From NCBI GenBank assembly GCA_965214605.1, contig OZ243961.1, positions 704,001 to 768,000 on the forward strand: DNA of 64,000 bases. The letters are read 5' to 3'. Below, in pieces: positions 11,449 through 62,188 of the stretch. The translations under genes and the position numbers were made by a program. Source of the DNA: an uncultured Candidatus Binatia bacterium (GTDB lineage: Bacteria; Desulfobacterota; Binatia; Bin18). The notes below the pieces were generated by a model. It was not told the DNA's origin. It did no database searches and worked only from the letters and a program-made list of their open reading frames with translations. Position 1 is the stretch's first letter, and every line of letters starts with the position of its first letter.

Positions 11449-12135
11449 ATGATCGATCTCTACACCTGGCCGACGCCAAACGGCCACAAGGTTCACATTT
11501 TTCTCGAAGAAACCGGCCTGCCGTATACCGTCCACGCCATCGATATTGGCAAGGGAGATCAGTTTGCAGCCGAGTTTCTCAAAATCAGCCCGAACAACAA
11601 AATGCCGGCTATTGTTGACCAAGACGGACCGGGTGGAAAGCCGTATCCACTCTTTGAATCTGGAGCGATTCTGTTGTATCTGGCCGAGAAGACAGGTCAG
11701 TATATGCCCACAGATACGGCTGGCCGCTACGAGGTCATCCAGTGGTTAATGTTTCAGATGGGCGGCATCGGTCCAATGTTGGGCCAGGCGCACCATTTTC
11801 GCCTATACGCTCCAGAAAAAATCGACTACGCCTTTAACCGCTACACCAACGAAGCCGCCCGCCTCTACCGCGTTGTTGATAAACGCCTGAGCGATCATGA
11901 ATATCTGGCCGGCGAGTATTCGATTGCCGACATGGCGACGTTTCCATGGCTGCGCTATCACGAAAATCAGGGCCAGCGGCTTGAGGACTATCCGCATCTG
12001 AAGCGCTGGTATGATGGGCTTGAAGCTCGGCCGGCCGTACAACGCGGCTTGGCAATCCTCAAAGATGCGGCAAAACCCATGGACGAAAAGGCTAAGATGA
12101 TACTGTTCGGCAAACAGCAGTACGAGACACGCTAA
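11449..12135 (+). CDS. yfcG: Glutathione S-transferase, YfcG-like disulfide-bond oxidoreductase
   Basis: [43 protein letters not shown]; RBS GGAGG. Confidence 0.88.
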
Positions 12136-12160
12136 CAGATGGCGGGAGCCTCGGGCCTGG

Positions 12161-37419: not shown

Positions 37420-38640
37420 CTAGATCAACACCTGTCCGTCGCGGAGCCGCCGAATCTCCGCTTCCGGCATGCTCAGCAACTCGCGCAATACCTCGTCCGT
37501 ATGCTGACCACGCTGTGGAGCCGCAGCTCGGACCTCACACGGCGTCCCTGACATCTGCCACGGAATACCGGCATGGATACGCCCGTCAAACTCGGGATGT
37601 TTTTTCTGCACCAGGTAGCCACGCGCTTCGAGATGCCGGTCGGTGGCGAGATCTTTGTTGCTCATCGATGGAAAAGCCGCCACTCCGGCTCTTTGTAAGA
37701 CCTCGGTCACCTCCCACCGGTCGCGCTGAACAGTCCAGGCTGTGAGGATCTCCTCCAGCGCGTCTTCGTTGGCTTTACGGGCGGTGACATTGGCAAAACG
37801 CTTATCGGTCGCCAACTCAGGCCGAGCGATGGCTTGACACAAGGCCCGCCATTCAGCGTCCGAGCCACACACGATCGTTACCCATTTGTCGGCGTCGCCC
37901 TGGCATTTAAAACAGCCGTGGGGCGCCATCCAGGGATCGTGATTACCGTCCCGCTCGGCTTGGGTGTTATTCATGGCGTAGTCCATCAGCCCTTCAGGCA
38001 TCAAGACCAGCAGCGCTTCCCACAGTGCCAGATCGACGTGCACGCCTCTACCGGTCCGCTGCCTATAGGCTAAGGCGGCCAGAGCCGCAAACGATCCAAA
38101 GATACCCGCGTTGGGATCACCATAGGAAATCCCGACTTCAGCCGGCCCCTTGTCCCGATAGCCGGACAGCGACGAAATCCCGGCCAGGGGCACCGAGGCT
38201 GGTCCGTAGCCCATATACGTACGCTCAGGTCCCGTCTGTCCATAGCCACAGATGGAAATCATAATGATATCGGGCTTCACCTGGCTGAGCGTTTCATAGC
38301 CAAAGCCCATGCGCTCGATGGCTCCGGCCGAAAAGTTCTGGACAACGATATCGGATTGCGTCGCCAGCTTTTTCACAATCTCGGCCGCCTCGGGTCGCGT
38401 CAGATCAAGCTGTATGCTCTTCTTGCCCTGATTGTACTGGTTAAAATAGCCCGCCCGGTTGGGACCCGGCTCGGCATCGACAAACGGCGGAATCAGACGC
38501 GTCACACATGGCCGTTTCTCACTCTCAATACGAATAACCTCCGCCCCCATATGGGCCATTTGCAGCGTACAATACGGGCCGGCCCAGGCCCAGGTAAAGT
38601 CCAGAACGCGAATACCATCCAAGGGTCGTGGGGATGCCAT
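37420..38640 (-). CDS. Family III CoA-transferase, BbsF-like subunit
   Basis: PLDGIRVLDFTWAWAGP, NQGKKS, SYGDPNAG, APHGCFKC. Confidence 0.92.
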   Translation of the reverse strand: MASPRPLDGIRVLDFTWAWAGPYCTLQMAHMGAEVIRIESEKRPCVTRLIPPFVDAEPGPNRAGYFNQYNQGKKSIQLDLTRPEAAEIVKKLATQSDIVVQNFSAGAIERMGFGYETLSQVKPDIIMISICGYGQTGPERTYMGYGPASVPLAGISSLSGYRDKGPAEVGISYGDPNAGIFGSFAALAALAYRQRTGRGVHVDLALWEALLVLMPEGLMDYAMNNTQAERDGNHDPWMAPHGCFKCQGDADKWVTIVCGSDAEWRALCQAIARPELATDKRFANVTARKANEDALEEILTAWTVQRDRWEVTEVLQRAGVAAFPSMSNKDLATDRHLEARGYLVQKKHPEFDGRIHAGIPWQMSGTPCEVRAAAPQRGQHTDEVLRELLSMPEAEIRRLRDGQVLI

Positions 38641-38650
38641 AGGATACCTC

Positions 38651-39859
38651 TTAAATGACGCCTTGCTGCTTCAGCTCTGCCACTTCCGCCTGTGACAGTC
38701 CCAGCTTACCGCAGTAGACCTGTTCATTATGCTCGCCCAGCAGCGGGGCCGGTCGAGGCGTCTCGCCCCCACCTTCGGAGACCTTAAATGGGGCACCGGG
38801 GTAGTCAAGCGTGCCAGCGACCTGGTGGCTGACCATGGTGAAGAACTCGCGGGCTTTCAGGTGCTCGGAAGCAAACAGGTCGGCCATGGTATTCACCGGA
38901 GCCATACAGATACGGCGATCTTGGCCGGCCTTGTAGAGGTCGGCCACCTTCCAATTGGCCGCCCACTCTTGGAGCAGGGGAAAGAGCGCGTCGTAGTTCA
39001 AGCCGCGTTGGACCCGGTCCTCGAAAATTTCCAGCGAGGCCCACTCGGGATCGCCCATCAGCTCAACAAAGCGCTGCCACTGATCTTCCTCCACGTTAAT
39101 CACAAACAGCTTGCCGTCTTGGCAGTCAAGCATACACCACGGAAAAATCGCTCGCCGTCCCAGGCGCGAGGTCTCATTTCCGGCATAGGTGTAATGCATA
39201 AAATTCATTTCCAGAATAGCGGCGATACACTCTTGAATCGACACATCAACATGCTGGCCCTGACCGCTCAGCAGCCGGTGATAATATGCGCCCAAGGTCG
39301 CTACTGCCGCGTGCACCCCGCCCTGGAAATCGGCTTGGTGGCCGAAGGCTTTGAGCGGTGGCAGGTCATCGTGGTCAGAGGCGCCGGGACTGATAAACGC
39401 CCAGCCACCGGCGTTGCTCGCCGTGAGGTCGTAAGCGCGATAGTCGCGGTGGGGCCCGGTACAGCCAAAATATGAAATTGTTGTCATGATGAGGCCGGGA
39501 TTGGTCCGCCCTAGCTTGTCAAAGTCGAGGCCTAAGCCAACCATCTCAGACGGCTGATAGTTGTGGATGAGCAGGTCGGCCTGGCTGCACAGACCCTGCA
39601 ACACCGCCCGGCCCTTTGCCAAGCGAAGATCTAGCGTGACCCCAAGCTTGTTGGTGTTCAAATATAGAAACAACCCGCTCTTTTCCGGGTGCGGGGTATC
39701 GCCGGGGAAGGGTCCGCACTGGCGGGCGCTATCGCCCCCGGGCTCTTCGATTTTGACCACCTCGGCTCCCAAATCGGCCAACAACTTGCCGAGATAGGGA
39801 GCCGAGACAAGATTGCCACATTCAACGACTTTGAGACCCGTCAGGAGTTGTTCTGCCAT
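38651..39859 (-). CDS. Family III CoA-transferase, BbsE-like subunit
   Basis: SAPYLGKLLADLGAEVVKIE, SGLFLYLNTNK, PAPLLGEHN. Confidence 0.92.
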   Translation of the reverse strand: MAEQLLTGLKVVECGNLVSAPYLGKLLADLGAEVVKIEEPGGDSARQCGPFPGDTPHPEKSGLFLYLNTNKLGVTLDLRLAKGRAVLQGLCSQADLLIHNYQPSEMVGLGLDFDKLGRTNPGLIMTTISYFGCTGPHRDYRAYDLTASNAGGWAFISPGASDHDDLPPLKAFGHQADFQGGVHAAVATLGAYYHRLLSGQGQHVDVSIQECIAAILEMNFMHYTYAGNETSRLGRRAIFPWCMLDCQDGKLFVINVEEDQWQRFVELMGDPEWASLEIFEDRVQRGLNYDALFPLLQEWAANWKVADLYKAGQDRRICMAPVNTMADLFASEHLKAREFFTMVSHQVAGTLDYPGAPFKVSEGGGETPRPAPLLGEHNEQVYCGKLGLSQAEVAELKQQGVI

Positions 39860-39880
39860 GGCTTGTCTCCATTAATCTCC

Positions 39881-41098
39881 CTAAATGACGCCTCGCTCGC
39901 TCAAGCGGACTAGCTCCTCGGCCTTCAGTCCGAGTAGATTCTGATACACCTCTTGATTGTGCTCCCCTAAAGCCGGCCCGACAGAACGCGCCGCCCCTGG
40001 CGTTCCGCTCAGCTTGGGCACAACGCCCTGCATGCGGATCGCACCGAGGAGCCGGTCGTGCAGACTGAGCACCATATCCCGCTCTTGGAAATGCGGATCA
40101 ATCGCAATATCGGCAATACTATTGACCGGCCCGGTTGGGATAATAGCGGCTTCAAGGCGTGGTAACAGGTCGGACAGCTCGTGTTCGGCCGTCCATCCGG
40201 CTACAATCGCGTCAATAGCGTCCCGGTTCTCGCCGCGCACCACAGCCGCTGCAAAACGCGGATCATCCAGCAGCTCTTCACGCCCCATAACTCGACACAG
40301 GCGGTCGAATAATTTATCGGAGTGGGCGGCAATAATAATCCATTTACCGTCCCGACACGGATACAGATTTGACGGAGCAAAACCGGGCAGGCTCGTGCCG
40401 GTCCGCGTCCGAATATGACCGGTTTTATCATACTCAGTCAGCGCCCCTTCCATCACCGCGAACACCGCCTCGTACAGGGCCGTATCAATGACCTGTCCAC
40501 GTCCACCATTCACATCCCGGTGATACAGCGCCAGCATAATGCCCAAGGCCGAGAACATACCGGCCAAGGAATCACCAATACTCACCCCAACTCGACTGGG
40601 CGGCCGATCCGGGAAGCCCACGCTGTAGCGCAGCCCACCAAACGCTTCTGCCACCGCGGCAAAGCCGGGCTTGTTTCGATTCGGTCCGGTTTGACCGTAG
40701 CCCGACACCCGGGCAAACACTAAACCAGGATTCCGCTCCCGCAGCACCTCATAGCCGAGCCCCCAGCCCTCAAACGTGCCGGGACGAAAGTTCTCCAGCA
40801 ACACATCGGCCTGAACAGCAAGCTTGCGCAGAATTTCTTGTCCTTCAGGCAGGCGCAGGTTGAGAGTAATACACTTCTTATTCCGGGCGATGTTTGGCCA
40901 CCATAAACTATGACCATCGACGAGCACCTGCCCAGTCGCACGCATGGGATCGCCCTGATTCGGCGGCTCAACCTTGATCACCTCTGCGCCAAAATCGGCC
41001 AGCAGCCTGGCACAAAACGGGGCAGCCAAAAGGACTCCACACTCAATGACGCGGATACCACTGAGGGGGCCGAAACTCGGGGTCGAATCAGCACTCAT
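39881..41098 (-). CDS. Family III CoA-transferase (formyl-CoA transferase-like)
   Basis: GPLSGIRVIE, ARNKKCITLN, ENFRPG, SGYGQTGP, SIGDSLAG. Confidence 0.92.
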   Translation of the reverse strand: MSADSTPSFGPLSGIRVIECGVLLAAPFCARLLADFGAEVIKVEPPNQGDPMRATGQVLVDGHSLWWPNIARNKKCITLNLRLPEGQEILRKLAVQADVLLENFRPGTFEGWGLGYEVLRERNPGLVFARVSGYGQTGPNRNKPGFAAVAEAFGGLRYSVGFPDRPPSRVGVSIGDSLAGMFSALGIMLALYHRDVNGGRGQVIDTALYEAVFAVMEGALTEYDKTGHIRTRTGTSLPGFAPSNLYPCRDGKWIIIAAHSDKLFDRLCRVMGREELLDDPRFAAAVVRGENRDAIDAIVAGWTAEHELSDLLPRLEAAIIPTGPVNSIADIAIDPHFQERDMVLSLHDRLLGAIRMQGVVPKLSGTPGAARSVGPALGEHNQEVYQNLLGLKAEELVRLSERGVI

Positions 41099-41150: not shown

Positions 41151-42248
41151 TCAAAACTTTGAGGGGTCAAGGCGGCACTCTCCCTCCTCTCTGACCGCCC
41201 CCCCGTACTTGCGGCACAAACCGCGAAACTGGTGATAGGTGAGCCCCAGCCTCTCAGCCGCCTTACGCTGATTGTATTTGGCCTGCCTGAGCGCCTTTCG
41301 GAGCAGACTGAGCTCCAGCTCTCGAACGGCCTCAGTAAAGGGCTTGGTCTCGACACTGGGCGGCACACGCTGCGCCCCCTTGGCCACGGATGGCCCGTCA
41401 TGTGGTTCGGCCCGAAAAGGCGACCGAAAGGGATCAACAATAATATCGCTCTCAGTCACCCGGCTGTCATCGGACCGGTACACCGCCCGTTCAACCACAT
41501 TTTTGAGCTCACGAATATTACCCGGCCAGTGGTAGGCTTCGAGCGCGGCAATCGCTGCGGGGCTGAAATCGGGGACCTCGTGTCGGCCGAGTTCTAGGGC
41601 CATACGGCCGGCAAAGTGCTGGGCCAGCAGCATAATATCCGGCTGGCGCTCGCGCAGGGGGGGCACAAACAGGACCTCGAAGGACAGACGATCAAGTAAA
41701 TCGGGTTTAAAGCGACCGTCTTTGGCCAGCCCAGCCAACTCAGCGTTGGTTGCTCCGATAATCCGCACGTCGGCCTGAATCGGCTGTGAGCCCCCCACCC
41801 GTTCAAAGCTGCCGTATTCAACCACGCGTAAAATCTTCTCCTGCACCTCAAGCGGGATTTGTCCGATTTCATCCAAAAACAGGGTCCCGCCGTCCGCGAC
41901 TTCGAAACGCCCGGCCCGCCGCTCAACGGCTCCGGTAAACGCGCCGTGCTCATGACCGAAGAGTTCGGATTCGATCAAGGTCGGAGACAAAGCCGCACAG
42001 TTAAGGGCCAGCAGCGGCGCCTGCCAACGCGGCGACAGGTAGTGGAGACGCGAAACGGCCAACTCCTTTCCTGAGCCCCGTTCGCCGATTAACAGCACCG
42101 GCCGATTGACCCGAGCGGCCCGTGACAGCCGTTCCTGAAATTCCAGGAAAATTTCCGACTGACCAAGGGCCTCGGTCCGGCCGACGTGCGGCACTTCATC
42201 GGTATGTTGAGGACCTCGCTTGTCTTGAATAAGGGTGCGTCTTTTCAT
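41151..42248 (-). CDS. pspF: Phage shock protein operon sigma54 activator PspF
   Basis: [33 protein letters not shown]-terminal [11 protein letters not shown]; divergent from pspA; exact start uncertain. Confidence 0.92.
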
Positions 42249-42325
42249 GGTGTTCAAAGCTATTATAGAGTAGTTTTGACGAAAAAATAGTAAAAAAACC
42301 AAGTTCATATTTTTCAAAATTTATC

Positions 42326-42338
42326 TAAGTCATTGATA
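42326..42338 (-). promoter_or_regulatory. Putative IHF-binding site in the pspF-pspA intergenic region
   Basis: Minus strand TATCAATGACTTA matches WATCAANNNNTTR; located between pspF and the sigma54 promoter. Confidence 0.6.
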
Positions 42339-42365
42339 TTCATCATTTTTTCAATTTCGGACAGT

Positions 42366-42383
42366 TTGGCACCCTCCATGCTT
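42366..42383 (+). promoter_or_regulatory. Sigma54 (-24/-12) promoter of pspA
   Basis: TTGGCACCCTCCATGCTT with GG-N10-GC spacing, about 45 nt upstream of pspA and adjacent to pspF. Confidence 0.75.
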
Positions 42384-42426
42384 ATACATGGCAACTCCAA
42401 CACCATAAGCAAAAGGAGGGGAGGAC

Positions 42427-43086
42427 ATGGGAGTTTTTAGCCGACTTGGCGATATCATTAGTTCCAACATCAACGCCATGCTAGACCGGGCCGAAGATCC
42501 GGAAAAAATGGTCCGGCTGATGATTCAAGAGATGGAGGATACCCTGGTCGAAATCAAGGCCTCGTGCGCGGGAGCGATGGCCGCTCAAAAGCGCATCCAG
42601 CGCGATTTACAACACGTTCACAACCGGATCACCGGCTGGGAGGACAAGGCGCAGCTCGCTGTCAGCAAGGACCGAGAGGATCTGGCCCGCGAGGCCCTGA
42701 TGGAAAAGCGGCGCTATCGCGAGCGGGCCAAAGCACTTGAAGAAGAGCTGCGCCACAGCGAAACCCTTATCAAGCAGTATCAGTCTGACATTGCGCAGCT
42801 CGACGATAAGCTCAGCACTGCCCGAGAGAAGCAGCGGATTCTCGTCCAACGCCACATCCGAGCTCAAAAGCAAAAGCGCGCTCATACCGACCTCCAACGC
42901 TTTGAGAACAACGCGGCGATGCTCCGCTTCGAGCAGTTTGAGAACCGTGTTGAGCGACTGGAAGCCGAAGCCGAGCTAGTCAACACCCGTCGTCAACCCA
43001 GCCTCGAAGAAGAGTTTGACCGGCTCGAAGGCGATGAGGAGATTGAGAAAGAGCTGGCTGCCCTCAAGGCCGCAGCACCCAACTAG
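42427..43086 (+). CDS. pspA: Phage shock protein A
   Basis: MGVFSRLGDIISSNINAMLDRAEDPEKMVRLMIQEMEDTLVE; coiled coil; strong RBS. Confidence 0.95.
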   Translation: MGVFSRLGDIISSNINAMLDRAEDPEKMVRLMIQEMEDTLVEIKASCAGAMAAQKRIQRDLQHVHNRITGWEDKAQLAVSKDREDLAREALMEKRRYRERAKALEEELRHSETLIKQYQSDIAQLDDKLSTAREKQRILVQRHIRAQKQKRAHTDLQRFENNAAMLRFEQFENRVERLEAEAELVNTRRQPSLEEEFDRLEGDEEIEKELAALKAAAPN

Positions 43087-43097
43087 GAGGAGGTTGG

Positions 43098-43520
43098 ATG
43101 GACGCACTATACGCCTTTTCACCAACCGGCTGGAGCTATTTTATTGGAAGCTCTCTGTTAATAGGTGCTCTTGTTTTGTGCGCGGCGAAGGGGACGGCTA
43201 GGCAGAGAAAGTGGGACAACGGATATTTGTATGCTATTCTTCTCATGAATCTAAGCACGCTGCTGATATATCAGTTGGAGCCCTTCTTTTTTCTGCACTG
43301 GCCAGCCCTCGTCACGCTTCTTGCCATCCCCATCGGGTATTGGACGATCTCCGCCAACCGGCCTTGGCTGCTGGCGTATCCGATGTGTGTGGCTGTTAGC
43401 TCTTACACGTTCTGGAGGGATGGCGTAGTGGTGCTCATCGCTTTTGCTGTCAGAACAAGGAGTGTGGGTGAGATACTGACGACCAAACCACAGCTGCTCA
43501 AGGCGGGGGGGACGACATGA
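43098..43520 (+). CDS. Hypothetical multi-TM membrane protein inside the psp operon
   Basis: RBS AGGAGGAGG, about 4 hydrophobic segments, stop overlaps the pspB start (ATGA). Confidence 0.65.
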   Translation: MDALYAFSPTGWSYFIGSSLLIGALVLCAAKGTARQRKWDNGYLYAILLMNLSTLLIYQLEPFFFLHWPALVTLLAIPIGYWTISANRPWLLAYPMCVAVSSYTFWRDGVVVLIAFAVRTRSVGEILTTKPQLLKAGGTT

Positions 43521-43777
43521 ACACGGGGACCTTAGTGATTCTCCTCATCTTTGGCACCGGGTTTGTGGCGGTCGCCGGGGGGCTTGCCCTTGCGGCTCTC
43601 AAGATCCTCAAAGGCCGTCCCAACCGCTCCCGCCAGCTCGATAGTGACGAAACCAAACTTATGCAAGAGCTCTATCAGGGTCTCTCACGCCTGGAAGAAC
43701 GCGTGGAGGCTCTGGAGACGTTGGTGCTTGATCAGGACAGACCGGACACCCGCAAGCAACATTCCTTCACCCTCTAG
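43517..43777 (+). CDS. pspB: Phage shock protein B-like
   Basis: N-terminal TM helix, then ETKLMQELYQGLSRLEERVEALETL. Confidence 0.8.
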   Translation: MNTGTLVILLIFGTGFVAVAGGLALAALKILKGRPNRSRQLDSDETKLMQELYQGLSRLEERVEALETLVLDQDRPDTRKQHSFTL

Positions 43778-43804
43778 AAACGCTGGTGCTTGATCAAGAC
43801 AGAC
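43710..43804 (+). repeat. 33-bp imperfect direct repeat of the pspB 3' region (period 62)
   Basis: CTCTGGAGACGTTGGTGCTTGATCAGGACAGAC (43710-43742) vs CTCTAGAAACGCTGGTGCTTGATCAAGACAGAC (43772-43804), 4 mismatches. Confidence 0.8.
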
Positions 43805-43821
43805 TAGAAAGGAGTCCGGCT

Positions 43822-44208
43822 ATGACGTCTACCCGCTATCAGTCTCAGACCCATCTGTATCGCTCCCGGGACGGGATGATCTTGGGCGTATGTAAAGGCA
43901 TCGCCCACTATTTTGACTTCAGCGTGTTCTGGGTTCGGTGTGTGACGCTTGTCATGTTTCTGTTTTCCGGCTTTTGGCCACTAGGTGGAATCTACCTGCT
44001 TGCCGCCCTGCTGATGAAGCCCGCGCCGGTCATTCCGCTGGAAACCAGCGAAGAGCAGGAGTTCTACCACTCCTATGCCAGCTCACAGGGCCTGGCGCTG
44101 CAACGCCTGAAGCGCTGCTTTGACAAACTCGACCACCGTATCCAACGCCTCGAACACCAGGTCACGACTCGGGAGAGTGACTGGGAGCGCCGCTTTTACG
44201 CTTCCTAG
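43822..44208 (+). CDS. pspC: Phage shock protein C
   Basis: LYRSRDGMILGVCKGIAHYF, IYLLAALLMKP, RIQRLEHQVT; RBS AAGGAG. Confidence 0.9.
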   Translation: MTSTRYQSQTHLYRSRDGMILGVCKGIAHYFDFSVFWVRCVTLVMFLFSGFWPLGGIYLLAALLMKPAPVIPLETSEEQEFYHSYASSQGLALQRLKRCFDKLDHRIQRLEHQVTTRESDWERRFYAS

Positions 44209-53200: not shown

Positions 53201-56200
53201 TCACCATGTAAGGCGTGGCTTGTCGAGACGCTGCAGTACATCGAGTTTGGTAATGGGGTGTTGTCGAAGGCGTTTCAAAATCCAGGCGTGCTCATAGAGC
53301 TGAACTCCGTGGACTTTTGCGGCCCCTGCTCCCGGTTTGCCAATCTTCCTCGCATTGGTAAAGACGGCAAGTGTGGCAAAATCCTTGGCGAGATGATTGG
53401 CGTAGAATTTCCGAGACGCGTAAATCTCGCGGACAGAGGAGTCGTCCTGTAAAACCTCATGCTTTGTGTATTTGCACTGGGCAAGCTGATTTCCATGGGG
53501 AGAGATCAGCACGATATCGCACCCCTTATCATTGCCCGTAGGAGTAAGATGCACCTCTCCGTCAAACTCTCGGTAAAGAAGTTCCGCCACGAGCGCTTCA
53601 AACTGCTCCCACCCAAGCAGGTCCAGCTCCTTTTCTGAGAGAGGAGGAGCCGGCTGGACTGTTGACTGTCCAAAGACGTCGGTCTGCTGAAACGATTCAT
53701 GGGTCACAATTTCCGGCGCCACTATCGCGTCTTTGAGGTCGACCTTCTTTGTCAGAAGCCGATGAAGATGCAGGTCAAAGGAATCGTGCTCGGGATGGTG
53801 CAAAACCGGAATAAAAACACTCACATCTCTGTCCTGACCGATGCGATAAACCCGGTCGGTGGCCTGCTCCTCTTTGGCGGGATTCCAGTGGCGCTCGAGA
53901 TGAATAACGTTATTGGCTCCCGTAATTGTGAGACCTACCCCGGCTGCCACCGGCGAGATGATCAGTATTCCAAAGCCGTCACACGACTCAAATTGCTCAA
54001 TCAAGCCCCGGCGCGTCAACACGGACTGTCGTTTACCAACCGCCTTCGTATCGCCGTTGAGCACCTCCACGGGTATGGCGTAAATTTTCCCGAGCACATG
54101 CCTCAGGAAGACCTGAAGCCGCCTGTTGATGACAAAAATCAGGACTTTCTCTCGGCGCTCTCTAATTTTGTCCAACACGTTTAATACAACCGACAACTTC
54201 CCGGACTTCCCAGCTTCGGTCCGACACTCTTGAATCGTGGCCGGCGATGGCAGCTCTCCTCCCCCCAGGAGATCTGGATGTAGAGACACATCGCGCAGGC
54301 GCTGCAATCCCCTCAAGAGGTGCTCTAGTCCCGTCCCCTCAGCTATTCCCTGACGGGTGGCCTCGACGACCGTATTGTAGGTAGTGAGCTGTAGACCGGA
54401 CATGGTCCGGGCCAGATGAGGGGAATATTCCTGATTTTTGGTAGTGTCTCCGACACCAACGTACACCCTTTTTTTAGGTAATCCTTCCAAGTAGCCTTCT
54501 TTAGTCCGTCTGAGCATGAGCGCCCCAACGCGTGTCCGGAGCTGTTGACCAACCTCTTGTCGGATCTGCGGCAGAGCTTTACCGGCTCTCAACAACGGGC
54601 GTACGTATGTCTTCCGAAAATCCTGATAACTATCGAGCAAGCCGGGAACAGCCGTGTCGAAAATACACCAGAAATCTCTGAGTTGGTTCTCAACCGGCGT
54701 CCCCGTTACCATGAGTTTGAACTGTGCCTTTATGCCCTTGGCTGCTCGCGTCTGCATGGCGTTGGGATTTTTGATGTTTTGAGCTTCATCAAAAATGACA
54801 AATGACCAATCCACCTGGCACAGTGAGAACTGGTAGTTGGTCAGGGTGCTGTAATTGGTGATGACCAATCGCCTCGGGCTATCTAGGCGGTCGAGTCCGA
54901 ACTCTTCACCCACTTTTAGAGAGAGCAGTGCCCGTTGATTCGTCTCACCGTTCTCAAGAACAGCGTCATCCTCCCGCTCTCGGGCTTCGACGCCGCGACC
55001 TGGGAGGCGATAACGCTTAAGGTCGGCACCACCGTGCAGCGTAACCATATTGACAAAGGGCGAGGCGGCAAAGGTCTGCTCGACCTCTGCTTTCCAGTTA
55101 TCGAGAAGAGACAACGGGGCGACCACTAAAACAGGCTTTTGCACGACCCCGCGTACGGCGCACAGGCGGTAGTACTCCCCAAGGGCGACCAAAGCCGTAA
55201 AGGTCTTGCCCAGTCCCATGTCGTCGGCCAATAGACTCCCGAACAGGGATTCTTCATCAGAATGTTCAAGCGCCTGCTGTGAGAGGCCGACCAACCATCG
55301 GATCCCTCTCTGTTGATAGGGAAATGGCGACCGCTTGTAATCCTCCCACGCGAGTTCGCCCTGATAAAGATGTTTGTCAATCGTTGAGTCTATGTAGCGG
55401 GATTTTATATCAAGACGCTCGTCATTGGGGTGAACGTCGACAACGATCTTTGCCCGACTGCTCTCATCTTCTTCAGCCTCGGCCTGGCTCGGTTTTTTCG
55501 GAGAAACCTCGATGGCGCCCTGAGCCCGAAGTTCTCGTTCGAGTCCGTCGAGAGTACGCTCAACTACGTCCCGATTGGCAATCGAGATCGTCTGTTCCTT
55601 GAACGAAATCTCGTTGCCCCCGGCCTGAACGGCATCTTGCAGTCGTTCCCGAAATTCGGCAAGATCCGTCAAATCCTGGATCGCGCTGCCAAGACTCTCC
55701 ACCCCCAGAGGAGATCCAGACGTCTCAGCGCTTCCTCGATCCAACCAATCAATCCCCGATGCTTCCGTCTCACCGAAGTAGGCGTGTCTGAACTCTGCGG
55801 CGCCGCGCACTCGCGCGGAATAGCCGACATCCAGATCAACGAGGGTGACATCAAGGAACGCCGTTGGGGAGGCGAGGAATTGTTTGATATATTTCGCTGG
55901 TATGGAGCGGTTTTTAATAATTTCCTGAGTCGCCTTCAGGCGTTTCTCGTCGAGCAGGATAATTGTATCGCCAACCCGCAGGCTCTGGACCGTATCGTTA
56001 TCCGGGGCTATCTGACCTAGACGATTGGCAACCTGCTCGGCTGAAACGAGCCCCTCAAAATTCGGAGTGAGTTCAAGATCACCGTTTGCAAGCCGCTCAA
56101 GCGAAACCGACACTCGCTGCGGTTCTACCGTCTTGAGGTCGGTAAACTGACGCAAGTCGATGTCACAGCCGGCTTCAGCGGCTTTCTGGACATGCTGGAC

Positions 56201-56734
56201 GGCGAGCAGATTGCGGTATTCAGACCGCGCCCCATCCACCAGCGCCTGATGGTCGGCAACTGCCTTCAAAGCCAACCATTGGTCTGGGGATGGAAGATAG
56301 TGCTCGGTTTCGCTGAGGCGCAGAAAAGGACCTTCGAGGCGGTATGAAGCCGCCGTATCCCCGCTCGCCGTCCGCAGGCGCAGGCGGAGCCTAAAAGAGG
56401 GCTGGAAGCTGCTCCCCTGCGTCCTGAGTTCCAAGCTGCCAGGCCAGCTGTCGGGGAGTCCAAACAGCAAACGTAGGTCCGATTCCAGGTTGACCACGGT
56501 TTCGGGTTCCAACGCAAAGCCATTCGCAAACCGCTCGGCAAGTCCCTGCTCTTCGAGCACTTTAAAATGGGCATATTGCGTCAGTGATAGCTCACCACCC
56601 TTTCCGGACTCGCAATCGGCAAAGGCCTTCTGTGGCAGATAAAAGCTGACATCTTCTTTTTCTGCCCTGTACGAGAAACCCTCATCCTGGGAGTTTCTCT
56701 GCCACAGTGCCGCTATTCGTTCTCTGACGGACAT
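53201..56734 (-). CDS. zorD: Zorya type I ZorD: SNF2-family helicase with a C-terminal Mrr-like nuclease
   Basis: LADDMGLGKT, DEAQNIKN, TGTPVEN, RHWNPAKEEQATDRVYRIGQ; Mrr-like FEALVAEL...DKGCD...QCK; last gene of the zorABC operon. Confidence 0.9.
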   Translation of the reverse strand: MSVRERIAALWQRNSQDEGFSYRAEKEDVSFYLPQKAFADCESGKGGELSLTQYAHFKVLEEQGLAERFANGFALEPETVVNLESDLRLLFGLPDSWPGSLELRTQGSSFQPSFRLRLRLRTASGDTAASYRLEGPFLRLSETEHYLPSPDQWLALKAVADHQALVDGARSEYRNLLAVQHVQKAAEAGCDIDLRQFTDLKTVEPQRVSVSLERLANGDLELTPNFEGLVSAEQVANRLGQIAPDNDTVQSLRVGDTIILLDEKRLKATQEIIKNRSIPAKYIKQFLASPTAFLDVTLVDLDVGYSARVRGAAEFRHAYFGETEASGIDWLDRGSAETSGSPLGVESLGSAIQDLTDLAEFRERLQDAVQAGGNEISFKEQTISIANRDVVERTLDGLERELRAQGAIEVSPKKPSQAEAEEDESSRAKIVVDVHPNDERLDIKSRYIDSTIDKHLYQGELAWEDYKRSPFPYQQRGIRWLVGLSQQALEHSDEESLFGSLLADDMGLGKTFTALVALGEYYRLCAVRGVVQKPVLVVAPLSLLDNWKAEVEQTFAASPFVNMVTLHGGADLKRYRLPGRGVEAREREDDAVLENGETNQRALLSLKVGEEFGLDRLDSPRRLVITNYSTLTNYQFSLCQVDWSFVIFDEAQNIKNPNAMQTRAAKGIKAQFKLMVTGTPVENQLRDFWCIFDTAVPGLLDSYQDFRKTYVRPLLRAGKALPQIRQEVGQQLRTRVGALMLRRTKEGYLEGLPKKRVYVGVGDTTKNQEYSPHLARTMSGLQLTTYNTVVEATRQGIAEGTGLEHLLRGLQRLRDVSLHPDLLGGGELPSPATIQECRTEAGKSGKLSVVLNVLDKIRERREKVLIFVINRRLQVFLRHVLGKIYAIPVEVLNGDTKAVGKRQSVLTRRGLIEQFESCDGFGILIISPVAAGVGLTITGANNVIHLERHWNPAKEEQATDRVYRIGQDRDVSVFIPVLHHPEHDSFDLHLHRLLTKKVDLKDAIVAPEIVTHESFQQTDVFGQSTVQPAPPLSEKELDLLGWEQFEALVAELLYREFDGEVHLTPTGNDKGCDIVLISPHGNQLAQCKYTKHEVLQDDSSVREIYASRKFYANHLAKDFATLAVFTNARKIGKPGAGAAKVHGVQLYEHAWILKRLRQHPITKLDVLQRLDKPRLTW

Positions 56735-56785: not shown

Positions 56786-58282
56786 TTAGACGACACCGTG
56801 TCGGCGTCTGTATTCCCGGTAGTCCTTAGAGCTCAACACGTCCGAGGGATCAATAGACGTTCCTAATTCCTGCAATGTCTTTATAGCCTTATACTGCCAC
56901 CTAGCAGGCTGATGCGTGATCTCGACAACCCCGGTGTGTCCAAATTGAGACACATAATCTTCATACAGTCCTTTTCCTAAGTCGCGGTGGGGAATATTAT
57001 CGCGTTCATAATTCTCAATAGGATTACCCCGAGGAAGTCGTCCGTATATCCGCAAGGAGAAACTGTGCGTTCCCTCAACAACATACTTTCCGTCGATGTT
57101 GAGATAGATGACCGAGAGAGAGGAGTGCCGCACTCGAGAATAAGCAGGGATATCCTTGTTCCGATAATGACGCCGGACGTAATCTTGAGCCCGCCTGCCG
57201 AGAAACAGCCGCGCGTCTTTGACTAGCCGCTTCTCAAAAACTCCTTTGAGAAAGCGCTTACGCGATGGAAACATCCGTTTCAGATCAGGATCGGAACTCT
57301 GCTCCACATGGTCTTCAAGGACTTTGAGAAACAGCTCGATATCCATTCCCGAGAGCCACTGACGGACCTGCTTGACATATTTATCGCCTAGTATGGCCCA
57401 CCAGTGTCTGTAATTGACCGCCCCCTTACTCACCCGCGGATCGCCGGCAATGGATAAGATCACCCGGAGCCAGTTCTCCGGCATATCCTGGCGGCGGGCA
57501 GCCCGATCAACCATGACTTGAACCACCTTGTGCCCCAGCAACCAGTCGCTTTCATAGGCGCTTTCATAGATGTCTTTCCGCACCAGTTCACGTAGAACCT
57601 CGTGGTCTTGGCCAACCTGGAGTTCTTTCAGAGGAGCCAAATAGTAGATGTTCTTACACTTGGTGAAGAAGCGGCCGCCGCTTTCCATAGGAAGTCCAAG
57701 ACGAGACGCAATTGTTTCCAAGGGAAGGGCGTCCTTCCGGGCCTGCTCAACAACCCATGCCGGGCCATCGATGGAAAAGAGAGTCTCGGCGTGTTGGGCA
57801 AAGAGAGCGAGCGTTTGTGAGAACTTTCTGTCGGCGTTCAGCCGAAACTGTTCTCGGAGAAATTCGGCAAATGACCAAGTATCCCCAAGCTCATCAAAAC
57901 GGGCAAAAAAGAGCTGGGTGCAGGCAAACAGCACAAGCGGCGAGTATCTTTGACGTAACGCCCTCAAATGCTTAAGTGTGGCAGGGTCGATCGGGTTGCG
58001 CTTAACGCACTCTTCACACTCCTGCCATAATTCCACCAGCGGACGGACATCTTTGGGTGTCCGCACGACGTTTTGGATGCGCCGCCTCCGGTGCAACAAG
58101 CCGTGAATATGTTTCTTACGCTTCCTAAAGGCCTCGGAGTTGGTCCCGGCCGTGTGGGCAAGCCGTTCAAGTTTGCCGGACAGGGCTTGATAGTGTACCA
58201 CGTCCGCCCTACCGGTCTGCTTGGGCAGAGTAAAGTCCAGTCTGGCGAGGCTCAATCGGGGGAGCTTAATTGTCAAAGACAT
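56786..58282 (-). CDS. zorC: Zorya type I ZorC (EH-signature protein)
   Basis: IAGDPR...WW, DIELFL, RMFPSRKRFL, VVEGTHSF (ExxH); start overlaps the zorB end. Confidence 0.85.
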   Translation of the reverse strand: MSLTIKLPRLSLARLDFTLPKQTGRADVVHYQALSGKLERLAHTAGTNSEAFRKRKKHIHGLLHRRRRIQNVVRTPKDVRPLVELWQECEECVKRNPIDPATLKHLRALRQRYSPLVLFACTQLFFARFDELGDTWSFAEFLREQFRLNADRKFSQTLALFAQHAETLFSIDGPAWVVEQARKDALPLETIASRLGLPMESGGRFFTKCKNIYYLAPLKELQVGQDHEVLRELVRKDIYESAYESDWLLGHKVVQVMVDRAARRQDMPENWLRVILSIAGDPRVSKGAVNYRHWWAILGDKYVKQVRQWLSGMDIELFLKVLEDHVEQSSDPDLKRMFPSRKRFLKGVFEKRLVKDARLFLGRRAQDYVRRHYRNKDIPAYSRVRHSSLSVIYLNIDGKYVVEGTHSFSLRIYGRLPRGNPIENYERDNIPHRDLGKGLYEDYVSQFGHTGVVEITHQPARWQYKAIKTLQELGTSIDPSDVLSSKDYREYRRRHGVV

Positions 58283-59012
58283 CCAATATCCCTTGGTATT
58301 CTTCAATGACGGGTTGTCTCACCGTAAAGCGCAGGTCGATACGCCGATTTTTGCGCCGCTTTTCATCCGTGTCGTCAGGTTCTTGCAGGCGGCGCGTCGC
58401 AGCATAGCCGCTGACCGAGAAAAGAGGCTTCCCTTGGAAATTCAGGAGAGTGGCAAGACCGTTGGAAGCTGCGCGTTCCTCGGTCCAGAAACGCCACACC
58501 TGTATCGCCCGGTTTGCGGATAATCCCCAGTTCCCGAGTTCAAGGGTCCGAGCAGGTCTGCTGTCGGTATGGCCCTCCACAAAAATCGTATCAAGAAATT
58601 TGTGGCGGCCATCCTTGAGTCTCCGCCGTAGAGCGCTGTTAAGCGTGTTGCCAATCGTATACACCGCGTCCTGTCTATCCGGGGGAATCTGATAGCTGCG
58701 AGTCTCAAAAAAGAGGTATTCATCAGGAATCCGCAGTACGGTCTTGTTATCGCTCACCTCAACCAGTATGCCATGCTCCTCCAGCTGCTTCTTGATCTCG
58801 TCAAGGAGGTCGGCGCGGTTCTTATTCGCCTCACTCAATTCTTGAATCGCCTGCTCAACGTCAAGCCGTCTTTTCTGAAGCTGAATAATAAACACCACCG
58901 ACGCCAAAATGAAAATCACCAACAGACCGGCCATGATATCGGAAAACGAAATCCAATAAGGATTCTCTTCGTCAACGTGCCGCCTGACATCGCTGGAGAC
59001 GCGCTGAAACAT
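58266..59012 (-). CDS. zorB: Zorya ZorB (MotB/OmpA-like)
   Basis: PYWISFSDIMAGLL (TM Asp), EGHTD, NWGLSANRA, NRRIDLRF. Confidence 0.92.
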   Translation of the reverse strand: MFQRVSSDVRRHVDEENPYWISFSDIMAGLLVIFILASVVFIIQLQKRRLDVEQAIQELSEANKNRADLLDEIKKQLEEHGILVEVSDNKTVLRIPDEYLFFETRSYQIPPDRQDAVYTIGNTLNSALRRRLKDGRHKFLDTIFVEGHTDSRPARTLELGNWGLSANRAIQVWRFWTEERAASNGLATLLNFQGKPLFSVSGYAATRRLQEPDDTDEKRRKNRRIDLRFTVRQPVIEEYQGILDVFDN

Positions 59013-59017
59013 AGACC

Positions 59018-62000
59018 TTATCTCCTTCTCTCAATCTTGCCGTCCATCTCTTCGACAGTGCTGGCAAGAGAGACAACTGCCGCCTGCATAGCGTTTGTAT
59101 AATTCTGGGTTTGCTTGGTCCACTCGTTCAGACGGTCTTGGGTCTGTGTCTGCACTTGGCTCGCGTAGTCCCTCAGAAGCTGAGCGACCTGCTTTTGCAA
59201 CTGGTCAACATGCTCCTCGAGAGCCGCAAACAACTGCTGCTGATGCTGAGTGAGCTGAGTCGTCTGCCGGCGCGAGGCGTCTGCCGCTTCCGCGATTCTA
59301 TCAGCCGCGCTGGAGAGCATGTCCTTAAGACCGGTAATGACGCCAATCACCTGATTGATATTGCGACCCGTCGTCTCATTCTCCCTGGCAAGCCGCCGGG
59401 TTTGCTCCAACACTTGACCTAGGGCCCGGCCGAGCTGATCAACCCCCGACTGAAGCCGTTCAGACAGAGTTCGTAGTCCGCCGGAAGCGTTGTTCAGCAA
59501 CTCGCCGCCCGTCCGTATTGCCGAGGCAGATGTTTGAAGTCCTTCTGTAACCGCTGCGATCTGCTCATACAATCTCTGACTCTGTTCAAGAACCGTTTGC
59601 GAGGCCTGAATATGGCCATCAAACGAGGCGGCCCAGGCAGTCTCTCTGGCGTCCATACGCTGGTTCAGCGCCTCTAGAGCATCCATAAAGTGCGTCATTG
59701 AGCCGCCCCACTGACTAATGGCCGTCTTCACCTCCGCCGTTGTCGCCTCCATCATCTTCCGCTGTTGTTCGCCTTGACCTCTCAGGCCGTCGCCGAATTG
59801 TCCGACTGCTGTTTCCATCGTACTTGAATACTGTTCGGCCTGCTTAGTCCATTCACGCAGATGGGTTTGGGTCTGGGTCTGCGCCTGATCCACGTAATCC
59901 GCCACAAGCTGAGCGGCCTGCTGTTGCGACTGCTCAACATAGCGCGAGAAGGCGTCCTGCGAGGCCTGAATATGGCTGTCAAACGAGGCGGCCCGGGCAG
60001 TCTCTCTGGTGTCCATACGCTGGTTCAGCGCCTCTAGAGCATCCATAAAGTGCGTCATTGAGCCGCCCCACTGACTAATGGCCGTCTTCACCTCCGCCGT
60101 TGTCGCCTCCATCATCTTCCGCTGCTGTTCGCCTTGACCTCTCAGGCCATCGCCGAATTGTCCGACCGCTGTTTCCATCGTACTTGAATACTGTTCGGCC
60201 TGCTTAGTCCACTCACGCAGATGGGTTTGGGTCTGGGTCTGCGCCTGATCCACGTAATCCGCCACAAGCTGAGCGGCCTGCTGTTGCGACTGCTCAACAT
60301 GGCGCGTGAGGGTGTCCTGCGAGGCCTGAATATGGCCATCAAACGAGGCGGCCCGGGCAGTCTCTCTGGTGTCCATACGCTGGTTCAGCGCCTCTAGAGC
60401 ATCCATAAAGTGCGTCATTGAGCCGCCCCACTGACTAATGGCCGTCTTCACCTCCGCCGTTGTCGCCTCCATCATCTTCCGCTGCTGTTCGCCTTGACCT
60501 CTCAGGCCATCGCCGAATTGTCCGACCGCTGTTTCCATCGTACTTGAATACTGTTCGGCCTGCTTAGTCCACTCACGCAGATGGGTTTGGGTCTGGGTCT
60601 GCGCCTGATCCACGTAATCCGCCACAAGCTGAGCGGCCTGCTGTTGCGACTGCTCAACATGGCGCGTGAGGGTGTCCTGCGAGGCCTGAATATGGCTGTC
60701 AAACGAGGCGGCCCAGGCAGTCTCTCTGGCGTCCATACGCTGGTTCAGCGCCTCTAGAGCATCCATAAAGTGCGTCATTGAGCCGCCCCACTGACTAATG
60801 GCCGTCTTCACCTCCGCCGTTGTCGCCTCCATCATCTTCCGCTGTTGTTCGCCTTGACCTCTCAGGCCGTCGCCGAATTGTCCGACTGCTGTTTCCATCG
60901 TACTTGAATACTGTTCGGCCTGCTTAGTCCACTCACGCAGATGGGCTTGGGTCTGGGTCTGCGCCTGATCCACGTAATCCGCCACAAGCTGAGCGGCCTG
61001 TTGTTGCAACTGCTCAACATGGCGCGTGAGGGTGTCCTGCGAGGCCTGAATATGGCTGTCAAACGAGGCGGCCCGAGCGTTCTCTCTGGTGTCCATACGC
61101 TGGTTCAGCGCCTCTAGAGCGTCCATAAAGTGCGTCATTGAACCGCCCCACTGACTAATGGCCGTCTTCACCTCCGCCGTTGTCGCCTCCATCATCTCCC
61201 GCTGCTGTTCGCCTTGACCTCTCAGGCCGTCGCTGAATTGATGGACGAGATTCTCAAGAGCCTCGGCGCCGCCACGTGCCTGACGCGACGCGAGATCGCC
61301 CGCAGCCTGAGCAAGGGATTCCAGAGCGGGCTGCATGCCCTGCTGAATACCTTCGAAAACAGCGGATTGGACGTTCTGTGTCACCTGGTTGATTGTTTCC
61401 TGCATTTTATTGCCGATGCGTTCGGAAAGGCCGTCCAGAGCAATGGCGGCTTGACGAGTTTCCTCATGAACATGGACCAGCGTTTGTTCCGGACTGAGAC
61501 GCGGAAAGAGTGCGTCTATCTTATTCTGTAAGGTCGTAATCTTGTATCTGACGCGCTGTTCGACGGCTTTTTCGATCAGGTTGAAAACAAAGCTCAGGGC
61601 TACTCCCCAGACCGAGGTCTTAAAAGCGATAGAGGCCCCATCTATCAAACGGGTGATACTGGCCACATCCTCAGGATTGACGTTGGACAAACCCAGGAAC
61701 AGACCGGTGAAAGTCCCGACAACACCAATAGCGGTCAGGAATGCGGGAACAGCAGCGAGAAGGCGATTTTCCGTGATACCTCGCCCCAAAGTGTGCGCAT
61801 TAAAGAAATGGGCGGCATCATAGGTATTCTGGATTCGCTCTTCACCTTTGGACACAACGAAGGTCTCGTCAAACTCCTCCCAGAGCTCACCCAGTCGCTT
61901 GTTGCGCTGCTGCCGGGCCTGCTGCTTCAGATCCTGACGTTTGTCCATCAGACTATCCGGTTTAAGCCCTCGGAGAAGTTTGCGGAAGAACGCTGTCGAC

Positions 62001-62188
62001 CTCCAAGAGCGACCCCAAGCCCAGAACACCCAGAGCAGAAAGCAGCCAAAGAGCAACCATAAGACGTAGATAAAAAGAGAACTTATCCCTTCCGAGGTCA
62101 CATCGCCGCTGAGCAAGCCGCTGAGCAAGGCGAACGGTTCAATTTTTGGTAGGAGATCATAAAAGTCAAAAGTGATTTTATCCTCCAT
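59018..62188 (-). CDS. zorA: Zorya ZorA (MotA-like channel with a very long helical tail)
   Basis: NTYDAAHFFN, VPAFLTAIGVVGTFTGL, GASIAFKTSVWGV, then about 830 aa of Q/E/A-rich helical tail; RBS GGAGG. Confidence 0.92.
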   Translation of the reverse strand: MEDKITFDFYDLLPKIEPFALLSGLLSGDVTSEGISSLFIYVLWLLFGCFLLWVFWAWGRSWRSTAFFRKLLRGLKPDSLMDKRQDLKQQARQQRNKRLGELWEEFDETFVVSKGEERIQNTYDAAHFFNAHTLGRGITENRLLAAVPAFLTAIGVVGTFTGLFLGLSNVNPEDVASITRLIDGASIAFKTSVWGVALSFVFNLIEKAVEQRVRYKITTLQNKIDALFPRLSPEQTLVHVHEETRQAAIALDGLSERIGNKMQETINQVTQNVQSAVFEGIQQGMQPALESLAQAAGDLASRQARGGAEALENLVHQFSDGLRGQGEQQREMMEATTAEVKTAISQWGGSMTHFMDALEALNQRMDTRENARAASFDSHIQASQDTLTRHVEQLQQQAAQLVADYVDQAQTQTQAHLREWTKQAEQYSSTMETAVGQFGDGLRGQGEQQRKMMEATTAEVKTAISQWGGSMTHFMDALEALNQRMDARETAWAASFDSHIQASQDTLTRHVEQSQQQAAQLVADYVDQAQTQTQTHLREWTKQAEQYSSTMETAVGQFGDGLRGQGEQQRKMMEATTAEVKTAISQWGGSMTHFMDALEALNQRMDTRETARAASFDGHIQASQDTLTRHVEQSQQQAAQLVADYVDQAQTQTQTHLREWTKQAEQYSSTMETAVGQFGDGLRGQGEQQRKMMEATTAEVKTAISQWGGSMTHFMDALEALNQRMDTRETARAASFDSHIQASQDAFSRYVEQSQQQAAQLVADYVDQAQTQTQTHLREWTKQAEQYSSTMETAVGQFGDGLRGQGEQQRKMMEATTAEVKTAISQWGGSMTHFMDALEALNQRMDARETAWAASFDGHIQASQTVLEQSQRLYEQIAAVTEGLQTSASAIRTGGELLNNASGGLRTLSERLQSGVDQLGRALGQVLEQTRRLARENETTGRNINQVIGVITGLKDMLSSAADRIAEAADASRRQTTQLTQHQQQLFAALEEHVDQLQKQVAQLLRDYASQVQTQTQDRLNEWTKQTQNYTNAMQAAVVSLASTVEEMDGKIERRR
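59598..61240 (-). repeat. 360-bp (120-aa) in-frame tandem repeat, about 4.6 copies, within zorA
   Basis: Near-identical blocks recur at 59641, 60001, 60361, 60721 and 61081; protein unit QFGDGLRGQGEQQRKMMEATT...EWTKQAEQYSSTMETAVG. Confidence 0.97.

Follow-up and report, generated by a model that had tools for sequence, protein, structure and literature searches.

ZorA of the Escherichia coli type I Zorya defence system (EcZorA) is a protein of 729 amino acids (aa) whose tail, formed by residues 223-729, is about 70 nm long, and all four of the tail truncations that were made in it abolish defence (Hu et al. 2024, PMC11946911). From these truncations Hu et al. infer that the length of the tail is functionally important, and they also survey tail lengths (PMC11946911); component size is described as well conserved within each Zorya family (PMC11890865). 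No repeat, duplication, heptad, hendecad or periodicity is applied to ZorA in the available part of the main text of PMC11946911, and the available part of a 2026 review (PMC13434031) repeats the Zorya model without mention of repeats. Here we describe a zorA gene in a stretch of DNA of 64,000 nucleotides (nt) from a Candidatus Binatia genome (contig OZ243961.1, positions 704,001 to 768,000; the whole stretch is called the window below), in which the middle of the tail is a near-perfect tandem array. We propose, with a probability of roughly 0.78, that the operon is a genuine type I Zorya system and that its ZorA tail has grown by three additional 120-residue modules, acquired in register and by recombination.

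The features of the gene on which this proposal depends are as follows, with positions given in the window.

59018..62188, minus strand: zorA, 1056 aa, a MotA/ExbB-type motor subunit with a long C-terminal tail (open reading frame, PADLOC, Pfam and a PDB match)
61523..62188, minus strand: N-terminal membrane and motor part of ZorA, residues 1 to about 222
59598..61240, minus strand: mid-tail tandem array of 4.6 copies of a 360-bp unit, residues ~317-864 (Tandem Repeats Finder, blastn and protein units)
61187..61237, minus strand: first copy of a Gly-rich mid-tail motif (F318..G321..G326..Q329 R..MME334), which recurs every 360 nt in five copies
60872..61231, minus strand: unit 1, residues 320-439, the outlier, differing from units 2-4 at 13-15 nt
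60512..60871, minus strand: unit 2, residues 440-559
60152..60511, minus strand: unit 3, residues 560-679
59792..60151, minus strand: unit 4, residues 680-799
59598..59791, minus strand: unit 5, partial (194 nt), consisting of segment A alone, residues 800 to about 864
59018..59593, minus strand: non-repeated distal tail and tip, residues 866-1056 plus the stop codon
59075..59221, minus strand: tip motif, residues 990-1038; segment B of each unit is paralogous to it

The initial annotation had reported about 4.6 near-identical units of 120 aa at 59598..61240, and three views of the array agree with it. Tandem Repeats Finder gives a period of 360 with 97% matches, 0% indels and a score of 3083, the remaining rows for the 64-kb window being just 25 bp and 33 bp long. 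Unit 3, used as a blastn query against the window, matches five copies only, with identities of 100, 98.3, 97.8 and 96.4% over 360 nt and of 97.9% over 194 nt, and the full units differ from one another at 6-15 of 360 nt. In the protein, the units start at residues 320, 440, 560, 680 and 800. Each module is made up of a segment A (66 aa) and a segment B (54 aa), such that the window gene has the architecture (A-B)x4 + A.

The relatives of this ZorA demonstrate that the number of modules is variable. A first homology search, limited to proteins of 580-1848 aa, returned eight close relatives (six of 692-694 aa, one of 812 aa, and one truncated at 598 aa), the rest being at most 40% identical. 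Forms of 572 aa could not be returned under this limit, an example of how length-filtered searches can miss such forms. A second search, with the 692-aa protein P0003 as query, found six more proteins of 572-573 aa plus fragments, and a scan of genome contigs found 10 loci, four of which are chromosomes of Candidatus Binatia metagenome-assembled genomes, with zorA products of 692, 692, 572 and 573 aa. In the alignment the length differences consist of whole 120-residue blocks: the 692-aa proteins have the architecture A-B-A', the 812-aa protein has A-B-A-B-A', and the 572-aa proteins have a single A. The partial unit 5 of the window gene corresponds to the A' copy found in all relatives, and unit 1 retains some residues of the relatives (E331, plus L and A in segment B). 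The non-repeated distal tail is 71-78% identical to that of the relatives (135-149 of 191 residues).

A census was made of 15 full-length proteins, including that of the window and mostly from Candidatus Binatia genomes; the fragments P0009, P0124, P0128, P0129 and P0141 were excluded from it and from the tree described below. Six proteins of 572-573 aa have 0.6 copies (P0121, P0122, P0123, P0125, P0126 and P0127), seven of 692-694 aa have 1.6 copies (P0003-P0008 and L002), 2.6 copies are found only in P0002 (812 aa), and 4.6 copies only in the window protein, P0001 (1056 aa). The tail thus ranges about 2.4-fold within the clade, from ~340 to ~840 residues, in otherwise near-identical intact operons. 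When the unit was used as a query against longer proteins, 17 of 17 matches at E ≤ 1e-10 fell within the clade, and more than 2.6 copies were found only in P0001. On one point the initial annotation needs correction: the state from which the clade has to be counted is 1.6 diverged copies (A-B-A') and not one, which means that the window gene has gained three units.

A tree was calculated with IQ-TREE from the non-repeat flanks only, using 16 rows (the 15 clade members, with the single-A protein P0130 of 576 aa as outgroup). At least seven changes of copy number are required on this 16-tip tree. Three pairs of sisters differ in copies, these being P0005 (1.6) and P0126 (0.6) with support 100/100, P0002 (2.6) and P0125 (0.6) with 100/98, and P0008 (1.6) and P0121 (0.6) with 98/96, and P0004 stands next to P0002 and P0125, which places three copy states in one tight group. 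The flanks of P0002 (812 aa) and P0125 (572 aa) are identical at 492 of 506 positions, and the fragment P0124, which has at least 1.6 copies, is identical to P0122 (0.6) at 312 of 315 N-terminal residues. The operons are intact in L002 (1.6 copies), in L003 and L004 (0.6) and in the window (4.6), and the partner proteins encoded in the window are 85-90% (ZorB), 67-73% (ZorC) and 73-76% (ZorD) identical to those of the Binatia loci. The idea that tail length varies by recombination was originally put forward from one gene; it now gains from relatives with 0.6-4.6 copies, from sisters with flanks that are 97-99% identical, and from hybrid junctions, to which we now turn.

The junctions provide clues as to the route by which copy number changes. 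In most of the relatives with 1.6 copies, A and A' are identical at 137-160 of 198 nt (69-81%), with identical runs of 10-18 nt. In the 0.6 forms the only A copy is a hybrid, its 5' side being like the first A and its 3' side like A', and the switch points vary between lineages. Lineage-specific switch points of this kind would be expected if A and A' had recombined independently to delete the module. In the window gene, scored on 16 sites at which the consensus sequences of A and A' differ (a strict set left 2 sites only), all five A copies have A'-type residues in their middle part, and the first A of the 1.6-copy fragments P0128 (449 aa) and P0124 (545 aa) has the same converted middle as the window copies. 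It is worth adding that the first 60 residues of P0128 appear frameshifted relative to its relatives.

The junctions suggest a sequence of events in which A-B-A', the common architecture of the clade, was the starting state. Recombination between A copies, either by unequal crossover or by gene conversion, would delete a module, giving the 572-aa forms, or multiply it, giving those of 812 and 1056 aa. In the lineage of the window gene, gene conversion would first have homogenised A and A', and unequal crossover would have followed. The longest identical run at an offset of 360 in the window array is 358 nt, and identical runs of up to this length at an offset of one unit would make further gain and loss easy. 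Long identical direct repeats recombine readily, and further gain and loss in the array should be frequent.

The units themselves carry traces of exchange. The distribution of variants given in the initial annotation is exact, with ARETAW in units 2 and 5, TRETAR in units 3 and 4, DGH in units 3 and 5, and DSH in units 1, 2 and 4; unit 1 has TRENAR where units 3 and 4 have TRETAR. In the DNA, variants are shared by units 2 and 5 at nt 26, 141 and 156, by units 3 and 5 at the adjacent pair 173/174 (17 nt beyond the last site shared by units 2 and 5), by units 3 and 4 at nt 2, and by units 1 and 4 at nt 344. By our own reading of the variant table there is a four-gamete conflict for {3,4}/{3,5}, {2,5}/{3,5} and {1,4}/{3,4}, each of these showing all four combinations. 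The mosaic of units is real, and requires recombination, conversion or repeated identical mutation, the last of these being unlikely because of the doublet and the triplet of shared sites. A separate observation is that unit 4 alone has four non-synonymous changes within 13 nt, at codons 67-71 (DTLTRH to DAFSRY), which may be mutations that happen to be clustered, or else a short tract converted from some unidentified donor.

The same variants bear on the possibility that the array is an assembly artefact, the assembler having miscounted a 360-bp repeat of which the true number of units differs. Near-identical repeats of 360 bp are a classic source of errors in copy number, and the array is present in one record. 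We regard a miscount as very improbable, given that the four full units and the partial unit each have a distinct combination of variants, unlike a duplicated consensus, that the array is on a contig of 4,312,128 bp, and that the same module is present in 0.6, 1.6 and 2.6 copies in relatives whose contigs measure ~4.6-6.0 Mb. An array of 1.6 kb is also short in comparison with long reads.

The lengthened tail belongs to what is, to judge from its genes, an intact type I zorABCD operon. That the gene encodes the ZorA of a type I Zorya system, as the initial annotation held, is borne out by PADLOC and Pfam on all four genes. The zorA product matches PADLOC ZorA1 (PDLC00601, E 7e-203) and has Pfam MotA_ExbB at residues 140-220. 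The partner genes are these.

58266..59012, minus strand: zorB, 248 aa (PADLOC ZorB1, E 1.9e-92; Pfam OmpA)
56786..58306, minus strand: zorC, 506 aa from a TTG start, with an ATG 8 codons in
53201..56734, minus strand: zorD, 1177 aa (PADLOC ZorD1, E 0)

The order zorA-zorB-zorC-zorD is on one strand, with spacings of 5, -41 (an overlap) and 51 nt, and all four genes are full length in comparison with the PADLOC profiles. ZorB is MotB-like, with an OmpA-type domain for peptidoglycan binding, and has Asp25 immediately before its transmembrane helix, as seen by inspection with no alignment; the Asp of ZorB is named D26 in PMC11946911 and D24 in PMC11890865. ZorC matches PADLOC ZorC1 (E 1.1e-137) and, over profile positions 3-421 of 423, Pfam EH_Signature (E 7.7e-68). 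ZorD, a helicase of the SNF2 type joined to an Mrr-like nuclease, contains the Pfam domains SNF2-rel_dom, Helicase_C and Mrr_cat, with GLGKT at 507 and DEAQ at 649.

Selection on the gene was estimated from non-synonymous (dN) and synonymous (dS) divergence. Between units dS is 0.04-0.11 and dN/dS is 0.16-0.46 (from small counts), there is no stop or frameshift, and the units show no sign of decay in their sequence. For the zorA flanks dN/dS is 0.10-0.21 in all pairs, including the 0.6-copy loci L003 and L004, and 0.18-0.20 for the window gene versus its relatives. The dS to the nearest loci, 0.62-0.99, is far above that within the array, which suggests that the expansion or homogenisation of the array was recent relative to the split from the relatives.

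These values are relevant to the explanation that the array is a recent recombination accident, neutral or mildly harmful, in a disused system, and has no functional meaning. More than 2.6 copies are found in only one of the 15 full-length clade members, the terminal branch of P0001 is long, the zorB of the relative L001 is frameshifted, so that decay does happen in the clade, and the truncations in E. coli show that the tail is sensitive to change (PMC11946911), all of which such an accident would accommodate. It is distinctly unlikely, in view of the four genes being full length against the profiles, of the dN/dS of the flanks, and of units that have reached their present dS with neither stop nor frameshift and at a dN/dS of 0.16-0.46, which argues that they have been translated under constraint for some time.

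The periodicity of the modules suggests that they fit into the structure of the tail. In the hydrophobicity spectrum of one unit, harmonic 33, equivalent to 3.636 residues per turn, has a power of 83, the others listed being at most 12.4, and 0 of 2000 shuffles reach 83; the hydrophobic period of the whole array peaks at 3.64. The resulting seam keeps a phase of 23-92 degrees over residues ~300-820 and retains its amplitude, including at the junctions of the units, and 24 of 33 residues in the core arc are hydrophobic versus 17 of 87 elsewhere. The only prolines of the tail are at residues 229, 233 and 287. A unit of 120 codons is 33 turns, so that adding or removing a unit keeps the seam in phase. 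The tail is thus predicted to be helical, with a continuous hydrophobic seam, and its periodicity implies that it would tolerate such changes. A gain or loss of one unit would leave the frame of translation, the seam of the coiled coil, the base next to the motor and the tip as they were.

Tandem repeats are also found in the tails of other ZorAs. They were detected by an offset scan in which the best window of 40 residues had to reach an identity of at least 45% (shuffled tails gave at most 35% in 120 trials). In a first set, other mid-tail repeats are present in 13 of 146 rows (12 distinct proteins, L010 being the same as P0058), with periods of 29, 40, 51, 69 and 148. A profile search of 1.84 billion representatives then gave 787 matches at E ≤ 1e-30, from which the best 150 were taken. 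The window ZorA is the longest among these best 150 of 787 (1056 aa, followed by 918, 875, 845, 845 and 835), and 15 of the 137 ZorAs in this set that had not been seen before contain tandem repeats, with periods of 51 (four proteins), 62, 69, 73, 80, 87, 98, 102 (two proteins), 153, 185 and 214.

The length of a turn was fixed in advance at 120/33. The independent set contains 11 distinct periods, and their mean deviation from an integer number of turns is 0.064, versus 0.251 expected, a closeness of fit that 0 of 200,000 simulations reach. For the six periods that are new and are not multiples of earlier ones, P=0.0016, and the fit to integer turns is found only near 3.62-3.64 residues. A heptad register, of 3.5 residues, was also considered and rejected, its mean deviation being 0.229 versus 0.08 at 3.64. 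Such in-register periods may arise either from selection that keeps in-register duplications or from misalignment between older in-register sub-repeats, and by both routes the tail is extended in register. It is possible, although on balance we find it somewhat doubtful, that tail length is an evolvable and quantised trait throughout the family, the mid-tail repeatedly gaining and losing modules of whole 3.636-residue turns.

The array is not, to judge from its composition, a featureless spacer. Segment A opens with 15 residues that form the most conserved mid-tail motif of this ZorA subfamily: among 47 distant ZorAs, L311 and Q329 are conserved in 47, F318 in 46, G326 in 45, G321 in 43 and M333 in 42. 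Segment B and the tip motif are identical at 27 of 49 positions, with a score of 147 versus 35 +/- 6 (maximum 63) in 500 shuffles. B retains 7 of the 12 strongly conserved tip positions and has lost 5, including T1027 and R1019. We also observe that B (for example 60512-60673) is an old paralogue of the tip, and that A-B looks like a 'mini-tail' in which the two conserved motifs of the tail are joined and the intervening stretch is absent.

These motifs invite the explanation that it is valency which has been selected: the duplicated Gly-rich and tip motifs, five sets per chain, would provide more sites per pentamer for docking of ZorC and ZorD or for output, and the added length would be incidental. 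Each unit does begin with a motif conserved in 42-47 of 47 distant ZorAs and continues with a paralogue of the tip, and deletion of the tip of EcZorA reduces co-localisation of ZorD from 27-39% to 0% (source data of PMC11946911). On the other hand, B is without five of the conserved tip positions, the published text that was available maps no site on the tail at which ZorC or ZorD binds, and the repeats of other ZorAs mostly start at residues ~342-470, past the Gly-rich motif, with periods (29-214 aa) that are unrelated, so that the pattern across the family is one of change in length and not of multiplied motifs. We therefore consider valency unlikely, and return to the in-register lengthening proposed above.

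The tail comprises ~820-850 residues; its start was placed between residues ~207 and ~236, an estimate of our own from the end of the Pfam MotA_ExbB match and the rise of the 3.636 signal from ~226. An ideal helix rises by 1.5 Å per residue, giving 18 nm per unit and ~125 nm for the whole tail. The values in the initial annotation, ~18 nm per unit and a tail of ~120 nm, assume such an ideal straight helix and have to be read as an upper bound. For EcZorA, the mean length of the tail by electron microscopy is 702 Å in the wild type, 412 Å after a deletion of 234 residues and 343 Å after a deletion of 295 residues (PMC11946911), which amounts to 1.22-1.24 Å per deleted residue and ~1.38 Å per residue overall. 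This calibration lowers the values to ~15-17 nm per unit and ~100-115 nm for the tail. At 1.22-1.5 Å per residue a 0.6-copy tail measures ~41-55 nm and a 1.6-copy tail ~56-73 nm, the latter matching EcZorA. By homology to EcZorA, the pentameric tail would gain ~15-18 nm with each unit, reaching ~100-125 nm, and the signal of the motor would still reach ZorC and ZorD.

Several points weigh against this proposal. The 4.6 copies are known from one sequence in one assembly, and P0001 sits on a poorly supported basal fork with a branch of 0.21, so that the state of its immediate ancestor is undefined. Recombination between alleles may have blurred the flank tree, and two of the 0.6 forms, P0123 and P0126, are on contigs of less than 5 kb, for which a collapse in assembly is conceivable, three others being on contigs of 4.6-6.0 Mb. 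The predictions of a helical, pentameric and straight tail are drawn from homology to solved ZorAs and from periodicity. The rule of integer turns has exceptions, a period of 148 being 40.7 turns and those of 185 and 214 deviating by 0.125-0.15. There are 8 glycines per unit, including those of the conserved Gly-rich motif, and the AF2 model of EcZorA has an irregularity at residues 312-322 (Hu et al., PMC11946911); the tail may be jointed and shorter than a rod, the Gly-rich motif forming a kink. Finally, every truncation of the E. coli tail that was tested abolished defence, so a natural change in length need not be neutral (PMC11946911).

The surroundings of the operon differ from those of its relatives. 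It is flanked by an aldo-keto reductase gene and a gene of the gluconolactonase family. In a tblastn comparison of nine window proteins, six flank proteins (SGL, SnoaL, aldo-keto reductase, FUN14, YdjM and M20) had no match in loci L001-L004, and as no flank gene is shared with these loci the operon appears to be at a different chromosomal site in the genome of the window. A megablast search of E. coli genomes and plasmids gave no match to the operon, and an Rfam scan of the whole 64-kb window found no family.

Loci L001-L004 (at ~7950-8920) have common upstream neighbours, an open reading frame of 158 aa and another of 150 aa, which in L001 have a weak match to DUF1285_N and a match to SpoU methylase; in L003 a GST-like gene follows zorD. 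In L001 (OY763426.1), a 1.6-copy relative, zorB, at 12085-12830, is split by a frameshift, with tblastn pieces at 12085-12309 and 12303-12827 and a reading frame that stops after ~85 codons. Either this operon is decaying or its assembly contains an indel error.

Elsewhere in the window, three neighbouring family III CoA-transferase paralogues (405, 402 and 406 aa) lie at 37420-41098 on the minus strand, beside an alpha/beta hydrolase, and there is a phage-shock-like cluster at 41151-44208:

41151-42317, minus strand: sigma-54 activator
42427-43086, plus strand: PspA/IM30
43786-44208, plus strand: PspC-domain protein

If tail length is indeed an evolvable and quantised trait throughout the family, defence tolerates in-register changes of tail length, or is tuned by them, and the number of modules would set the reach of the motor into the cytoplasm or the number of effectors signalled. 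The loss of function on deletion of the middle of the E. coli tail may then reflect broken register or lost motifs, and not length; the deletion of 234 residues in EcZorA corresponds to 64.35 turns, if the 3.636 period applies to that protein. A single clade here offers a graded series of 572, 692, 812 and 1056 aa with the same base, tip and partner proteins. It also suggests a simple rule for which changes of length survive, namely that they are whole numbers of 3.636-residue turns, and it suggests that a component of a defence system can change in size quickly by homologous recombination.

Among known systems, EcZorA (PDB 8qyd) shares with the window protein its type, its gene order and a MotA-like 5:2 motor subunit with a long helical tail, which in E. 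coli is needed for defence and for the recruitment of ZorD (PMC11946911), and the period of ~3.64 found here fits the right-handed, nearly straight bundle modelled there. The initial annotation's description of E. coli ZorA, about 730 aa with a tail needed for defence, agrees with that paper. EcZorA is however distant in sequence (E 6e-8), and its 729 aa and tail of ~70 nm contrast with 1056 aa and 4.6 modules. The closest solved chain is 8vvn_C (696 aa, E 4.5e-74), named 'MotA/TolQ/ExbB proton channel domain-containing protein', which aligns to residues 31-454 of the window protein (the motor and proximal tail, including the Gly-rich motif) and to residues 860-1052 (the distal tail and tip, which align to 503-695 of the chain). 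It has the length of the 1.6-copy class, and residues 455-859 of the window protein, the extra units, are skipped in the alignment. The Candidatus Binatia clade (P0002-P0008, P0121-P0127 and L001-L004) has flanks 69-80% identical overall, the same A and B modules and the same operon, but 0.6, 1.6 or 2.6 copies, and A and A' are mostly diverged in its 1.6-copy forms where those of the window gene are homogenised.

The system and its tail are therefore known, whereas modular, quantised variation of the tail driven by recombination appears to be undescribed: no paper on ZorA tail repeats was found in a literature search that left subscription papers, bioRxiv and Nature supplement PDFs outside its scope. 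More distant parallels exist. In the type III secretion ruler YscP, the tape-measure proteins of phages, the M proteins of streptococci and the heptad classes of chemoreceptors, helical length is varied by internal repeats, and as in ZorA an in-frame duplication or deletion steps the length of an extended helical protein. The proteins named belong to families unrelated to ZorA and serve other functions, and what sets ZorA apart from them is that the step follows a non-heptad period of 3.636 residues in the tail of a homopentameric rotor.

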